A stretch of DNA of 5,369 nt from Candidatus Jordarchaeales archaeon (GCA_038889235.1 JAWAHN010000007.1:1-5369), one strand, 5' to 3'. Numbered from the stretch's first letter, positions 1 through 5,369 are shown. A program made the numbers and translations. Notes: generated from the letters alone by a model not told the origin.

Positions 1-72
1 GACCAAGCCCGCTATTAATCCTCCGAGAACCGTGTAGACAGCGTTGAAAACGTACTCCAACAGCTCTCCCAC
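1..72 (-). CDS. 5' part of a probable membrane or secreted protein, running off the left edge
   Basis: Manual translation from GTG at 72..70 gives (M)GELLEYVFNAVYTVLGGLIAGLV, open to the window edge, with an 18-residue hydrophobic stretch typical of a TM helix or signal anchor. An in-frame TAA at 81..79 bounds it upstream. Only 24 codons are visible. Confidence 0.45.
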   Translation of the reverse strand, partial: MGELLEYVFNAVYTVLGGLIAGLV

Positions 73-96
73 CAGTGGTTATGCCGCTGAGTGAAC

Positions 97-256: not shown

Positions 257-446
257 TTATCACATCTACATGTTCTCCGCTCTCTCGCGGATTCAAAGGC
301 TTTGAGTTATCCAAGCTCAGGGAGAAAGACCCAGAGCTCTACAGCTACGTTGAGAGCATTGCTCACCGGAGTAGCTGGTCAAACTCTTCGAGTCGAAAGC
401 ACGCTTAGACACTTCAACACTTCAAACCCTACCCCGGGAGAAAGAA

Positions 447-470
447 CTTTCAATTCTTTGCATCGTATTC
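447..470 (-). CRISPR. Solitary (orphan) CRISPR repeat
   Basis: CTTTCAATTCTTTGCATCGTATTC matches the array consensus CTTTCAATTCTTTGTATTGTATTC at 22/24 positions, in the same orientation, 4114 nt from the nearest array repeat. The ATTGAAAG handle end is intact. Confidence 0.85.
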
Positions 471-991
471 GTCTGACCCCTCCGCTTCTCGATGCCTTCA
501 GAGTCCTCTCTAAACACGCTTTTGTCTCCAAATTTGGAAACAAGATGCGAAGGATCAAGAGGGACTAGGGTAAGACATCGATTGTTCTCTGTATTATGCG
601 TTACTTTGCTTCTCCAAAGCACGAGTGGGAGAAGAATACTGCATAGCTTAAACACTCCTGAGGGATTCCAGCTAGTGGAAGACTGAAACTGCAGAGATCC
701 CTTGAACCCGTGTACTTTCAATGGGCATTGATGTCTCGAAGATTCGTCGAAGACGCGAAGATTTTCACTTTGGGAAGTAATAGGTGAAAAAGCATCCTTC
801 TAGAGCTACTATTACTTGCCAATACCCCCTGTAGTTCAACGGCTTCGCTTCCAAGCAGAGGCTTCTTTTTATTAAGGAATCTAGCTCGCTCAGAGCTTTG
901 CGTAGAAACCTGCATCCAGCGGGGGCGCGTCTGGTTTGGGCTTCATAACGCTGATGTTCCTCACACAAGTATTTGTTGTAAAATCATGCTC

Positions 992-1006
992 AAGCTTAAA
1001 ACCCCA
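992..1006 (+). promoter_or_regulatory. Putative archaeal BRE/TATA promoter element AAGCTTAAAACCCCA upstream of the R-M gene
   Basis: Purine-rich AAG plus CTTAAAA, about 120 nt upstream of ATG 1124. It is identical over 15 nt to the motif in the CRISPR leader (4920..4934, minus). Confidence 0.45.
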
Positions 1007-1123
1007 GCATTTTGTGAGACAAACATGCGTTAGTGATAGGATTCTAGGTCCTCATAGGTTAAGGACGGATGTTGAAGTAGATTTTAATTTGAACCAGAGT
1101 TGTATTGAATATTTGGGGAAAAG

Positions 1124-4018
1124 ATGATCCCGGAGCCAACTGAAGACACTGTGACTAATCTTCTCGTTAAGGAGTTGGAGAAGTATGGTGTTAAGGCTGT
1201 ATCTTTTCCTAAGATTTCTACGCCCAGTGGTGTTAGAAAGCCTGACATTTGGTGCTCAAATAGCGGAGCATACGTCATTGAGGCTAAGTTCAAGGAGTCT
1301 GATCTAATTAAAGCTATAGCCAAAATTCAGAACGATTACATTAGATGGTTTGACGTTTTAGGTATCAAGGGCGGTTTTGCGGTTCTTTACCCTGAAGAGC
1401 TTATCAAACCTTTGCCTCCTGAAGTTTTAATGAGGAAGGCTCATCAGGCTAAGTTTAAAGTTGTGGCGATGTTTTCGCCGAAGGATGTTAGGAAAAGTTT
1501 TACGGTTTATGAGGGAACTTTGGCTGAAATTGCTAAGATACTTGCTGAGCATATTCTCACTCCTCCGGAACATGTTGAGCCAAGCGTGAATTACATAATA
1601 AAGGCATTGAGGGATTCAGCGGAATACATAACAGCTGCATTAAAACACTTGTCTGGGAGAGTGTTCGAGGATGTTTTTGGCGGGAAAGAAGTCTTTAAAA
1701 ACATTCTTCAATATGAAGAGCAGAAATATCCAGTTGAAACTTTAAGACTTGCTTCAGCCTATTTGCTAGTGAATCAGCTTCTTTTTTACCATGTTCTTTC
1801 TCGAAGAATGCCTGAAAAGTTCCCTGAAATTGACGCTGATGCTATTAAAAAACCAGCTGACTTAAATGTTTATTTTAAAAAAGTTTTGGATGTCAACTAT
1901 AGAGCGGTGTTTTCCTACGATGTAGCCTCAAAGATTCCGCCAAACTTCACGGACCGAGTTAAGGCTGTTATTAACGTTATCAAGGGCTTGTCTCCCGAAA
2001 AAGTGGGCGGAGATCTGCTTGGAACAATATTCCATGACTTGGTTCCTTTCGAAGTAAGAAAGACGGTTGGAGCCTTCTACACAAATGTCTTAGTTGCTGA
2101 ACTTCTTGCTTGGTTATCTATTGATAATCACAATTGCAAGGTCGCAGACTTTGCCGTAGGAAGCGGGGGCTTGCTCGTTGCTGCTTATCGAAGGAAACGC
2201 CATCTTTTGGAGAAGGAGAGAAAGTTCACCGAAGATGATCACAAACGGTTCGTTGGAAACGAACTTTTAGGCGTTGATATCATGCCTTTCGCCGCGAGTA
2301 TTGCTGCATGCCATCTCGCACTTCAATCCCCAGAGCATTTCACTAACAAGGTCAACATTGCGATTTGGGATTCAACAGAGCTTGAACCGGGCAGAACCAT
2401 TCCTTCAATAGCTAGCTTGAGATTTGTGCTTAAAGGGCAAACGACTCTTGAAATGTACCTTAAAAAACCCACTGAGAAATCCAAGGGCGTAGTGAGTCTC
2501 ACCGGGGAGATTCCCGAGGAGATTGTCCTCGAAAAATATGACGTTGTTATCATGAACCCTCCCTTCACAAGACAGGAGAGGATCCCCGAAGAATACAAAG
2601 ACTTATTATTTAAGAGGTTTAAGGACTACAAGGATTATCTTCATAGTCAGATGAGCTATTATGGCTACTTTGTATTGTTGGCTGACAGGTTTCTAAAGGA
2701 TAATGGTAGAATGGCGCTGGTCTTGCCAGCCACAGCCTTACATGTAAGGTCTGCGGAAGGACTCAGAAAACTGTGGGCTGAAAAATACCACGTAGAATAC
2801 ATCATTACTACATGGCATAGGCTCGCCTTTTCAGAAAGTGCGGTTTTCAGGGAGATTTTGCTGATTGCAAAGAAAACAAGACCTTCCAAGGATGCAGTTA
2901 CCAAAATCTGCGTCTTAAAAAGGCTTCCGGATAAGATGTCCAAAGCTCGTGAAATTGCAGACAAAATCAGAGAGCTGAAAAGCGACTATGAAGACGACGA
3001 AATTGCCGTTAAAATACATCCCTATGTAAAATTAACTGCTGATACAACTGACTGGTACAAATTCGTTTCCCTGAGCAATTTGAAACTTATAGAGATGTTG
3101 AATAACCTATTATCTTCTGAAAGGCTTGTCCCATTATCGCAGATTACAGAAGCGAAAGAGTGCGATCTAAGAGATTTCAAGTTCAAGGATTTTCACGGTT
3201 TTATCTTAAAGGATGCTAAGAGAATCCAAAGAAAAACTGATCACTGGTTTTTAGAAAAAGAAAAAGCAAATTCCATAGTGATTAAGCATAGTGAGTTCAT
3301 GCATACAATAGAAGTTCCATTAAATTGTCTAACTAGGGCGCTTAGAAGATTCTCCTATGTGAATACAATTGATGTAACAGAAAATTCAGATTACCTTATT
3401 CAGAGCTGGTTTGATAAAATACCGGAAATGGCAAAATACGCTCTATCATCAAAGGAACTTGATTCTCTTAATTCGAATGTTATCAGTTCATGGAAAAAGA
3501 GGTTTGAGAGAAAGAAAGCCCACTTGCTGTTAGCAAGAAGGCTTTACTTATCTTCTCCTGGTACGTGTTTAATTGCCTTTTACTCAGATGCTCCCATGGT
3601 GGGGGTTGATCTTTGGAGCCTAAGGGGGCTCAACAAAGAGGATGCAAAAATCCTTGCACTATGGCTAAACAGTTCCATAAACATCCTTCAACTCTTATAC
3701 CTTGGAGTTGCGTGCGAAGGACCATGGATGAAGATTCACGACTACATGTTCAACGGACTTCTCGTCCCGAATCCGAAAACGCTAACAATAGAAGAAAAAG
3801 AAGAACTACTTGAATTATTCAGAAAACTTGGAAAAGCGCCCTTTGAAAGCATAACAAAACAGCTAGAAAATGAAGACGAAAAAAGAAAAGCCATAGACAA
3901 AGCTTGGCTAAAATTACTTGGATACAAAGGAGATCCGGAAACATTCTTAACGCAAATTTACAGAGCTATTTTGGAAGAAATAAAGATTATTGAGCAATTA
4001 ATGCACGCGCGTGCATAG
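1124..4018 (+). CDS. Type IIG-like fused restriction endonuclease / N6-adenine DNA methyltransferase with C-terminal target recognition region (964 aa)
   Basis: Uninterrupted ORF. Nuclease motif P40-D41...E53-A-K55 (KPDIWCSNSGAYVIEAK). Helical linker region. MTase motif X (GAFYT), SAM-binding motif I DFAVGSG (aa 342-348), motif II GVDI, catalytic motif IV NPPF (aa 478-481, nt 2555..2566), motif VI-like FLKDNGRMALVLP. The I-before-IV order followed by a ~350-aa C-terminal region is the gamma-class / IIG layout. Specificity cannot be inferred. Confidence 0.93.
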   Translation: MIPEPTEDTVTNLLVKELEKYGVKAVSFPKISTPSGVRKPDIWCSNSGAYVIEAKFKESDLIKAIAKIQNDYIRWFDVLGIKGGFAVLYPEELIKPLPPEVLMRKAHQAKFKVVAMFSPKDVRKSFTVYEGTLAEIAKILAEHILTPPEHVEPSVNYIIKALRDSAEYITAALKHLSGRVFEDVFGGKEVFKNILQYEEQKYPVETLRLASAYLLVNQLLFYHVLSRRMPEKFPEIDADAIKKPADLNVYFKKVLDVNYRAVFSYDVASKIPPNFTDRVKAVINVIKGLSPEKVGGDLLGTIFHDLVPFEVRKTVGAFYTNVLVAELLAWLSIDNHNCKVADFAVGSGGLLVAAYRRKRHLLEKERKFTEDDHKRFVGNELLGVDIMPFAASIAACHLALQSPEHFTNKVNIAIWDSTELEPGRTIPSIASLRFVLKGQTTLEMYLKKPTEKSKGVVSLTGEIPEEIVLEKYDVVIMNPPFTRQERIPEEYKDLLFKRFKDYKDYLHSQMSYYGYFVLLADRFLKDNGRMALVLPATALHVRSAEGLRKLWAEKYHVEYIITTWHRLAFSESAVFREILLIAKKTRPSKDAVTKICVLKRLPDKMSKAREIADKIRELKSDYEDDEIAVKIHPYVKLTADTTDWYKFVSLSNLKLIEMLNNLLSSERLVPLSQITEAKECDLRDFKFKDFHGFILKDAKRIQRKTDHWFLEKEKANSIVIKHSEFMHTIEVPLNCLTRALRRFSYVNTIDVTENSDYLIQSWFDKIPEMAKYALSSKELDSLNSNVISSWKKRFERKKAHLLLARRLYLSSPGTCLIAFYSDAPMVGVDLWSLRGLNKEDAKILALWLNSSINILQLLYLGVACEGPWMKIHDYMFNGLLVPNPKTLTIEEKEELLELFRKLGKAPFESITKQLENEDEKRKAIDKAWLKLLGYKGDPETFLTQIYRAILEEIKIIEQLMHARA

Positions 4019-4413
4019 GTATCTCATGAAGGATCTCTCTAAGGTCATGTTTCCACCTCGGGACGTAGTAGAAGCATCTACGTTGGAGAGCTTTTACCTC
4101 TGAAGTAAGCTATCCAAGGTTAGCAGAGTTTGCTGAAGTCTGTTCAGGTGCAATTAATACTCGAGCACGGAGGTAGCACTGGCTAGGTTTATTCTTGAGA
4201 AGCAAAACGAAAGCTCAAACAAGTATGTAATGCAATTACTTTCCACCTTCCCGAGTCTACCTCTTTGTGAACTTGATTAGCGCATTACGTGCTTCTCTCC
4301 GGGTGCCTCCTTCCTCTGCTTTCCCTTTTTTCCTGGGTAGTTCGACTCCCGCTGCTTCTTCTCCTCTGATAGCCTCCGGTTCAGCCTCGCACGCTCTCGC
4401 AAGTTCTCTCTTA

Positions 4414-4497
4414 GATGTCTACTTCGGTGTTAAAGTAAGGAACTACGATAAAGCACTCGAGCTGGTGGGGCGCCTTGAAACACAAAAGGGACTGTAA
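4414..4497 (+). pseudogene. Possible 3' remnant of an unidentified gene
   Basis: Only the last 27 codons of ORF 4267..4497 look like real protein (DVYFGVKVRNYDKALELVGRLETQKGL*). The stop is followed 2 nt later by GGAGGT and an ATG, as at an operon junction. The family is not recognised. Confidence 0.3.
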
Positions 4498-4499
4498 AC

Positions 4500-4513
4500 G
4501 GAGGTTTGCTATG
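4500..4513 (+). promoter_or_regulatory. Shine-Dalgarno GGAGGT plus ATG opening an 18-codon ORF (4511..4567)
   Basis: GGAGGT at 4500..4505, 5-nt spacer, ATG at 4511; the frame reads MIAITMFQLFAPMPHPSA* and ends 17 nt before the array. Confidence 0.35.
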
Positions 4514-4584
4514 ATTGCTATTACAATGTTTCAACTATTTGCCCCCATGCCCCATCCCTCTGCATGATCAAAAAGTACGAAAAC

Positions 4585-4874
4585 CTTTCAATTCTCTCTA
4601 TTGTATTCTCGGAAGCGCTAACAACGCTACTGCTGTAGGCCTGTTGCACCTCTTTCAATTCTTTGTATTGGTATTCCTACATGCTGAAGCTGAGGAGGAT
4701 CAAGCGATTCTACGACATCTTCCAATTCTTTGTATTGTATTCCGCGAAGACATCATAGATGTCATTGTTGTTGATAAGTGGACCTTTCAATTTTTTGTAT
4801 TGTATTCACAAGCTCATGTACTCGTGTATCAGCGCCTTGATCCACGCGTGCTTTCAATTCTTTCTATTGTATTC
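4585..4874 (-). CRISPR. CRISPR array, 5 repeats / 4 spacers, crenarchaeal-type repeat (minus strand GAATACAATA(C/G)AAAGAATTGAAAG)
   Basis: Repeats at 4585..4608, 4652..4676 (1-nt insertion), 4719..4742, 4784..4807 and 4851..4874. Unique spacers of 43, 42, 41 and 43 nt. Orientation is inferred from the 3' ATTGAAAG end and the TATA-bearing leader on the right. Confidence 0.96.
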
Positions 4875-4945
4875 TGTGTGTGAGCTTTGATTTCGTCTCC
4901 TTAGTTTTGTTTACGAGGGTGGGGTTTTAAGCTTTAGGGTTGATC
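4875..4945 (-). promoter_or_regulatory. CRISPR leader with BRE/TATA (AAAGCTTAAAACCCC on minus, 4935..4921)
   Basis: Non-coding stretch adjoining the outermost repeat. The TTAAAA box (4930..4925) lies about 50 nt before the first repeat, which would put a start site about 25 nt before it. The distal limit of the leader is not determinable. Confidence 0.65.
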
Positions 4946-5212
4946 AAGTCTGTGGATGTTTTTATGGTGTTCATGGATATAGTTACGTTAATGATGCTGC
5001 ACTTTATTCACACCCGTACAGGAGTCTGCTGAGCAGTAGACGAAGCACTGTGTAGGTCCTTGACCCCTCAGAGTACTCACATGAGTGACTAGCCATGGGT
5101 GAACTTGGGAAGCACGAAGAACAAGTGTTCTACACTAGGAGACCTCGGAAGCAGCATCAATCATTAATCTTGCGATATGCCATAGATTACACTATGTGTT
5201 TGCTGTTCGGTA

Positions 5213-5254: not shown

Positions 5255-5369
5255 TTAAGCAGTTGCTTTGATCTGTTCTTCAAGTGTTTTCAAGTAGGAT
5301 TTTCCTTCTTCACTAATAGCGTACGCGTTTCTGCCGAGTGCTCTAACCTTACCTTCCTTCTTAAGCCTT
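5255..5369 (-). CDS. 3' end of a winged helix-turn-helix protein (probable transcriptional regulator), entering from the right edge
   Basis: Manual translation from 5368 gives RLKKEGKVRALGRNAYAISEEGKSYLKTLEEQIKATA* (stop 5257..5255). L-x-x-x-G-x-V, a wing, then Y-x-I-S-E-E-G-x-x-Y-L fits the end of MarR/PadR/ArsR-like wHTH domains. It is absent from the ORF track because the start is outside the window. Confidence 0.7.
   Translation of the reverse strand, partial: RLKKEGKVRALGRNAYAISEEGKSYLKTLEEQIKATA

Follow-up and report, generated by a model that had tools for sequence, protein, structure and literature searches.

Solitary repeat units and mini-arrays of CRISPR repeats have been described on viruses and plasmids, and the roles proposed for them are those of RNA anti-CRISPRs or integration handles (PMC10651486, PMC11656645, PMC6858448). 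For solitary repeats and mini-arrays our sources are Medvedeva 2019 (PMC6858448), Camara-Wilpert 2023 (PMC10651486) and a review (PMC11656645). Terminal repeats of arrays, at the trailer end, are typically polymorphic (PMC8047081). Here we analyse a stretch of archaeal DNA in which an intact Type IIG restriction-modification (R-M) gene lies between CRISPR repeats of one family. The window, by which we mean the whole stretch analysed, is the entire contig C7 (5369 nt, 42% G+C) of the metagenome-assembled genome (MAG) G000 (8 contigs, 2.14 Mb), assigned to a Candidatus Jordarchaeales archaeon (GCA_038889235.1, JAWAHN010000007.1).

An initial annotation of this locus had proposed a repeat-bounded defence cassette, comparable to a giant spacer, and had mentioned decayed repeat relics at a defence hotspot as a mundane alternative. 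That alternative turns out to be essentially right, with the refinement that the relics and the R-M gene are embedded in the remains of plasmid-like elements. To the reading of the window as mobile-element wreckage mixed with CRISPR relics, derived most likely from a genome or plasmid-like element of Desulfurococcaceae, we give a probability of about 60%.

Layout of the window

Six copies of a 24-nt repeat (consensus CTTTCAATTCTTTGTATTGTATTC) are found in the window, all on the plus strand: one solitary copy and five in an array. Allowing at most three mismatches, the window yields five repeat matches against 0.00 expected from 200 dinucleotide shuffles, and even with eight mismatches no further relic copies appear in it. 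The solitary copy and the array enclose an interval of 4114 nt (471-4584) with a single intact open reading frame (ORF) inside, which is also the only long ORF of the window (964 aa). Repeat and ORF searches therefore bear out the arrangement described initially, that is, a 22/24 repeat at 447-470 co-oriented with the array and a complete R-M gene in the 4114 nt between them. The features are collected in Table 1.

The order of solitary repeat, R-M gene and array is no chimera or assembly artefact, because Logan contigs from hot-spring metagenomes of four studies span its pieces (127-2064, 632-4498 and 4454-4880, at 99% identity or more). As noted initially, neither an integrase nor a transposase is present in the window; three stubs of mobile-element genes are, however. 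Searches with the window gave no match in a plasmid database and no Rfam family at E up to 1.

Table 1. Positions of the features in the 5369-nt window, with the evidence used for each.
Feature	Position	Strand	Evidence
Conserved segment at the left contig end; an ORF (MGELLEYVFNAVYTVLGGLIAGLV...) begins here and continues past that end	1..92	ORF on -	DNA match and translation
3' stub of a primase-polymerase (prim-pol)/PriX gene from a plasmid-like element; conserved 289-352, stop 403-405	289..405	+	tblastn, DNA alignment
Leaderless solitary CRISPR repeat (22/24 to consensus), 41 nt past the prim-pol stub	447..470	+	Repeat search
Non-coding segment X	567..838	.	70% over 273 nt to G041:C6:42400-42653
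Promoter-like motif AAGCTTAAAACCCCA	989..1006	+	Inverted 17/18 copy of leader motif
Self-contained R-M gene unit; TATA-like box ~1083-1091, ORF 1124-4018	1082..4018	+	Nucleotide homology, Pfam, PADLOC
3' stub of a second Type IIG-like gene (distantly related; its final ~52 codons)	4260..4418	-	tblastn
End of DUF5906 replicative helicase (27 codons, 4414-4494) and start of the helicase/prim-pol intergenic region (4495-4564)	4414..4564	+	Nucleotide and amino acid homology
Decayed CRISPR mini-array (5 repeats; 4 spacers, each 41-43 nt)	4585..4874	+ (CRISPR RNA (crRNA) sense = minus strand)	Repeat search
CRISPR leader with conserved TATA-region motif and distal TTCATGGTGTTCATGG block	4875..4977	-	Alignment with three G041:C6 leaders
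3' end of a gene cut by the right contig end, 37 codons and stop	5255..5369	-	Translation

The R-M gene is a unit of its own

Taken together, the stubs of prim-pol/PriX, DUF5906 helicase and second Type IIG genes, segment X and the R-M unit mark the presumed giant spacer, by homology, as a composite of at least five unrelated pieces. The idea of a repeat-bounded cassette is not upheld, since the R-M unit has its limits at 1082 and ~4005 rather than at the repeats. These limits come from the closest relatives of the gene (77-84% nucleotide identity), which stand in four otherwise unrelated contexts and align with the window only from 1082 (one from 1124) to 4004/4005. Among themselves they share just the gene and about 42-45 nt upstream, and two of the four contexts carry MCM helicase and tyrosine integrase genes. 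Judging from the shared homology limits, the transferable unit is the gene with its own predicted TATA-like box. The gap between this unit and the solitary repeat measures 611 nt, and that between the unit and the array ~570 nt. Around the unit we find no target duplication, in that no direct repeat of at least 14 nt pairs DNA outside 1082 with DNA outside 4005-4018. A 99% variant of the R-M protein occurs on a 3.9-kb contig ending at window positions 535 and 4446.

The protein itself matches the Pfam families Eco57I (7e-19), N6_Mtase (6e-16) and MmeI_Mtase, and its best PADLOC models are Type IIG restriction-methyltransferases (REase_MTase_IIG). Motifs I (GxGG) and IV (NPPF) of gamma-class N6-adenine methyltransferases are present. 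All 26 homologues compared (49-84% identity) keep the PD-ExK triad D41, E53 and K55 as well as GSGG346-349 and NPPF478-481 without change. A PD-(D/E)XK endonuclease domain in the same chain is indicated by this triad and by weak structural matches: a model of residues 1-215 (predicted local distance difference test score, pLDDT, 78) gives weak hits (best E ~1e-4, template modelling score, TM, ~0.3), nearly all of them proteins of the restriction-endonuclease fold (PD-(D/E)XK), including the Type IIL enzyme DrdV. Towards the C-terminus, where a target-recognition domain would be expected, the family shows conservation over residues 620-964 but no named domain. The gene is intact and plausibly encodes a single-chain Type IIG-like R-M enzyme. 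Exact-protein look-ups for this protein and for two small ORFs find no record. A candidate relic of a second copy of the same R-M family at 4019-4260 was dropped; its tblastn matches were weak and a profile search gave no support.

Can the two CRISPR repeats be recombination handles that allow the R-M cassette to be excised or exchanged as a unit? They are direct and 22/24 alike, CRISPR repeats do recombine (review PMC8047081), and there are metagenome contigs with joints between positions 469, 470 or 476 and array repeats. However, the R-M transfer limits lie ~600 nt inside the repeats, and 22/24 identity over 24 nt makes a poor substrate for homologous recombination. The architecture is moreover seen in none of the homologue loci: same-family repeats on both sides of an R-M homologue occur in 0/80 metagenomic loci (736 kb), which answers in the negative the survey suggested by the initial annotation. 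The joints themselves (470-to-4582, 470-to-4850 and 476-to-4851), tried as deletions, were rejected. They are attributed to other arrays of the same repeat family in the community, because their sides consist of the repeat alone (23-26 nt) and, where shown, foreign spacers lie between. The excised circle or hybrid-repeat junction that had been foreseen is accordingly not found in them. With this balance we regard the repeats as very improbable handles.

A further joint, 342-to-4550 (sides 30-33 nt), was likewise rejected as a deletion and attributed to a related element, both segments being conserved in related prim-pol elements. An exact 35-mer spanning the left flank and the solitary repeat has no match in the metagenome contigs, and the alternative continuations at loose ends in these contigs could not be placed, save one that belongs to the leader of another array. 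Nor was an empty allele found, which had been named as a check: in 40 relatives of G000 and 63 Desulfurococcaceae genomes only short mosaic matches occur.

Only one of the 80 R-M homologue loci lies near any CRISPR array at all. In this locus (L122, JADDYB010009733.1) the array at 2950-3203 has at least 4 repeats of a different family and starts ~270 nt past the end of the R-M homologue.

Remains of a replication module

The stub that precedes the solitary repeat shows 76% identity over 21 aa (tblastn) to residues 325-345 of a 357-aa ORF (G045:C11:258-1328), which matches the Pfam families PriX and LigD_Prim-Pol. To the right of the R-M gene, the segment 4414-4564 is 83% identical over 148 nt to G042:C1:285924-286072, with 74% identity over 27 aa for the helicase end; the intact helicase ORF matches Pfam DUF5906. 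In the intact relatives (G042:C1 and G045:C11) helicase, intergenic region and prim-pol are adjacent. In the window the alignment of the intergenic region breaks off ~14-21 nt before the first array repeat. The third stub, of the second Type IIG-like gene, is 56% identical over 55 aa to the C-terminus of a 1104-aa ORF (G045:C39:3763-7074) with Pfam matches to N6_Mtase, Eco57I and HSDR_N.

The helicase/prim-pol intergenic region is ~80% conserved across elements (window 4495-4564; G042:C1 ~286005-286175; G045:C11:100-200). A C-rich/G-rich hairpin (CCCCCC..GGGGG) is seen in this region in the intact relatives and is missing in the window. The region may be a replication origin or promoter of the element family.

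The stubs raise the question whether a prim-pol/helicase plasmid with a solitary repeat integrated in or next to the trailer end of a host array through homologous recombination between its repeat and one of the array, and then decayed so that its R-M cargo was left bracketed by two repeats, or whether the reverse took place and the plasmid captured an array. Both repeats of the window are directly preceded by pieces of one replication module, which is contiguous in intact relatives, with helicase end, intergenic region and prim-pol ~1.06 kb apart. Members of the element family also repeatedly contain solitary repeats of host-like type or adjoin mini-arrays. Entry of mobile elements into arrays through solitary repeats has also been proposed in work to which PMC10651486 refers. 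But after a simple repeat-by-repeat integration, one would expect host trailer DNA left of the left-hand repeat and the end of prim-pol beside the right-hand one, and the window has the opposite. Given this order, extra events would be needed, either a tandem integration with deletions or a circular topology. Also, the R-M unit has boundaries of its own and other relatives (the MCM/integrase elements), so it is not original cargo of this plasmid family, and reads with a hybrid junction are not seen in the metagenome contigs. We consider integration unlikely. A more general proposal would be that Desulfurococcaceae prim-pol plasmids recombine with host arrays through solitary repeats that mimic those of the host, thereby bracketing defence cargo beside a captured leader and mini-array, perhaps here on a small circular satellite. 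This, too, seems unlikely to us; if true, it would show in nature what has been proposed for mobile elements, namely that they integrate into CRISPR arrays by way of repeats.

The solitary repeat

Around the solitary repeat there is no full or partial copy within ~100 bp; it is intergenic, with no supported gene covering 447-470, and the nearest other copy is more than 4 kb away even at 8 mismatches. The adjoining sequence (471-620) contains nothing leader-like (z below 0). By eye, a weak TATA-like TTTAGA can be recognised ~40 nt upstream on the crRNA-sense strand. Among the sequencing runs that contain the locus, none is listed as RNA.

Related elements provide a comparison. In the 63 Desulfurococcaceae genomes, 4/16 prim-pol loci (54.7 kb) have family-like repeats within ~2 kb, against 0.05 expected. 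One (G074:C2) holds a solitary copy that is 22/24 identical to the array repeat of its own genome, another (G045:C11) a 19/24 solitary copy, and on an 894-kb contig (G092:C2) 64 nt separate a prim-pol stub from a leader-bearing mini-array of 2 repeats. Solitary copies are common in relatives. On these sequence grounds the window copy is more likely a solitary repeat borne by a mobile element than a displaced terminal repeat, because a prim-pol stub adjoins it and related prim-pol elements carry host-like repeats.

The mini-array and its leader

The array has the regularly spaced direct repeats (starts at 4585, 4652, 4719, 4784 and 4851; spacing 65-67 nt) and the unique spacers of similar length that define a CRISPR. 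Its repeats are not near-identical, as they would be under turnover: each copy has 1-2 changes from the consensus, the one at 4652 is 25 nt long through one inserted base, and all five are mutually different, whereas in relatives as many as 51 identical copies occur in the large arrays. Because of this contrast with the identical repeats in active arrays of relatives, we read the mini-array as inactive, no longer acquiring spacers and decaying by point mutation. Its spacers have no target among phage records, in IMG/VR (searched with exact 28-29-mers), in the retrieved loci or in G000, and the 5.4-kb contig carries no cas genes.

Next to the array, 4875-4977 aligns with the leaders of three separate arrays on one contig (G041:C6) of a Desulfurococcaceae MAG, but this similarity does not extend to the spacers; identities to leaders in G041, G043, G044 and G045 are 70-80%. 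From leader homology without spacer homology it follows that the leader lies on the right, as the initial annotation had it, and that crRNA sense is the minus strand. Crenarchaeal repeats of type I-A/III end in ATTGAAAG, and so does the minus-strand repeat here.

Beside large arrays, Desulfurococcaceae MAGs contain numerous mini-arrays (1-5 repeats), and every one of these has a homologous leader to itself. Examples are G041:C6 (at 5.3 kb, 41.9 kb and 48.6 kb), G043:C2:286441-286531, G044:C8:24734 and G045:C81, one of them a single repeat with leader.

The TATA-region motif of the leader (4920-4937) has an inverted 17/18 match, AAGCTTAAAACCCCA, within the interval (989-1006; local alignment with the window's own leader, z=4.9). 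The copy is 118 nt upstream of the R-M start codon, outside the transferable unit with its start at 1082. The idea that part of a leader survives ahead of the R-M gene was rejected, as just these 17/18 positions match and there is no wider leader homology; the motif itself may represent a promoter element common to both places or the relic of a leader.

Host of the contig

C7 has no similarity to the rest of G000, and the repeat family is absent elsewhere in that genome. Among genome matches to the repeat pattern, 18/19 are Desulfurococcaceae/Desulfurococcus MAGs, a family to which G000 does not belong; 399 other genomes of its phylum give a lone 2-mismatch match in one. Several separate segments of the window show 70-83% DNA identity to Desulfurococcaceae genomes. 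Most likely, then, C7 comes from a Desulfurococcaceae genome or its plasmid-like or mobile element and not from the Asgard MAG with which it was binned, because repeat family, leader and DNA segments match that family and the repeat is nearly absent in the phylum of G000.

Another contig of G000, C6 (5.7 kb, 41.6% G+C), has two stretches that are 73-78% identical to a Desulfurococcaceae contig (G045:C39). C6 and C7 were probably both mis-binned into G000. As to the CRISPR content of G000 itself, the ends of its contigs fall within large arrays built on a 36/37-nt repeat, GAAACAAAAACAGTCCCCACAAATGGGGATTGAAAG (C1:1-1586, C2:111-3908, C3:466355-470045 and C5:29-1285). An 18-repeat array of another 24-nt repeat (CTTTCAACTCTCTCGCTGAGATTC) lies at C2:459212-460322 and is followed by a T/G-rich leader.

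Proposed history of the locus

Four components would account for the window. A mini-array with leader would have ceased acquisition and then decayed by point mutation. A leaderless solitary repeat would have been carried in by the prim-pol element family. Deletions would have left the 3' stubs of the prim-pol/PriX, DUF5906 helicase and second Type IIG genes. Finally, the intact single-gene Type IIG unit (1082 to ~4005) would have arrived separately with its own promoter, as in other elements. This gene probably persists since a self-contained restriction/methylation gene may be selected for or hard to lose. Under such a history the repeats would bracket the R-M gene through a shared debris field and not through mobilising it.

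Several observations weigh against this account. The solitary repeat is co-oriented with the array and stands on its trailer side, where a terminal repeat that had been displaced would also be found; because of this position, an old array relic or displaced terminal repeat is a possible identity for it. The splitting of an array by insertion of the R-M gene, considered in the initial annotation, is a possibility too, though the immediate left neighbour, a plasmid gene stub, points to a mobile-element solitary repeat instead. In related prim-pol elements the solitary repeats differ in their position relative to prim-pol. On the helicase side, the intergenic DNA of the window gives out within ~20 nt of the first array repeat, and 41 nt separate the prim-pol stub from the solitary repeat. 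Both fragments of a single replication module thus terminate just to the left of a repeat, a hint that recombination associated with repeats had a part in forming the junctions. With regard to the host, C7 and G000 cannot be told apart by tetranucleotide composition (r=0.83 to contig C1 of G000 against 0.70 to Desulfurococcaceae loci). Last, neither the 40 relatives of G000 nor the 63 Desulfurococcaceae genomes contain a close syntenic relative by which the order of events could be supported.

Contig ends and segment X

At the left end, 1-92 is 83% identical to G041:C6:6385-6472, which is located 722 nt past the leader of a mini-array there. The summed depth of metagenome contigs at 1-92 is several-fold above that of the R-M core. 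The gene end at 5255-5369 gives only sub-threshold Pfam matches and has no homologue in the 63 Desulfurococcaceae genomes.

The ends bear on the possibility that C7 is a circularly permuted small element (~5.5-6 kb), circular or in tandem, defective and dependent on a helper for replication, which would have kept the intergenic region (a possible origin), the R-M gene, the mini-array and the solitary repeat. On G041:C6 the leader is followed 722 nt on by the homologue of 1-92, linking the right end of C7 to the left, but the stretch between the two is not conserved with G041. The distance from helicase end to prim-pol end is 1062 nt in G045:C11 and 1093 nt across the joined ends of C7, and minus-strand coding sequence runs off both ends; yet the ends do not overlap and a direct join is out of frame, so that a gap, at the least, would lie between them. 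Starting from the R-M core, summed contig depth increases in a symmetrical way to both ends, a pattern that as contig-level sums is suggestive only and that contig breaks at strain-shared sequences explain equally well; such breaks would account for the other three observations, too. Moreover, the window contains no intact replication gene, nothing similar appears in plasmid or viral collections, and the end patterns are absent from IMG/VR. A circular element is thus quite unlikely in our estimate.

Segment X could be an unknown RNA or a small mobile module. Pfam and Rfam searches of 567-838 give no match. In G041 its homologue is inverted and ~310 nt past the leader of a 2-repeat mini-array, so that in both genomes the segment lies a few hundred nt from a CRISPR repeat or mini-array, in opposite orientations.

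Comparison with known systems

The locus serves as a cautionary example, as CRISPR repeats that bracket a defence gene mimic a cassette and yet resolve into independent debris. It also means that a 5-kb contig binned with an Asgard MAG carries CRISPR of Desulfurococcaceae type and plasmid DNA. A by-product of the analysis is the association, in Desulfurococcaceae, of the prim-pol/DUF5906 plasmid family with host-like solitary repeats or mini-arrays. If this association reflects repeat-mediated recombination or RNA anti-CRISPRs, phenomena known mainly from bacteria and from viruses of Sulfolobales would reach another archaeal family.

With the solitary repeat units and mini-arrays described so far the window has in common a host-type repeat without cas genes, in intergenic DNA next to mobile-element genes, and a short array with leader, again without cas genes. 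In related elements the solitary copies track the repeat of their own host, as the described ones do. The window differs in that its element is broken and no clear promoter lies upstream of the repeat, for which an anti-CRISPR role is a candidate by analogy. Its array, with 4 spacers, departs from the described mini-arrays in having repeats that are mutated and not identical to those of a host array, and spacers for which no target was found.

Degenerate trailer-end repeats are the second point of comparison. The solitary repeat lies on the trailer side in the same orientation and has two substitutions, as such a repeat might. It is, however, 4.1 kb away and not one spacer, and its left neighbour is a plasmid stub and not a trailer. 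Normally the last repeat alone is polymorphic, whereas in the window array every one is; polymorphic repeats are as expected for an array decaying or collapsing without turnover (PMC8047081).

The stubs are presumably comparable to the replication modules of prim-pol and superfamily-3 helicase in crenarchaeal plasmids and integrated elements (pRN-type). They match prim-pol/PriX and DUF5906 ORFs that are adjacent in intact Desulfurococcaceae relatives, with the difference that just the last 27-39 codons of each gene remain in the window.

With Type IIG/IIL enzymes (the MmeI/Eco57I family; DrdV, PDB 7lo5) the R-M protein shares the N-terminal PD-(D/E)XK, the gamma-class N6-adenine methyltransferase motifs and the format of a single chain of ~960 aa. 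Its similarity to characterised enzymes is confined to the methyltransferase core. In its mobility the gene resembles single-gene Type IIG/IIL systems, as it recurs with ~42 nt upstream in unrelated contexts including MCM/integrase elements, here with no visible insertion scar. Overall, the window is a further case of two known kinds, a solitary repeat and mini-array with mobile-element debris and a mobile single-gene R-M unit.

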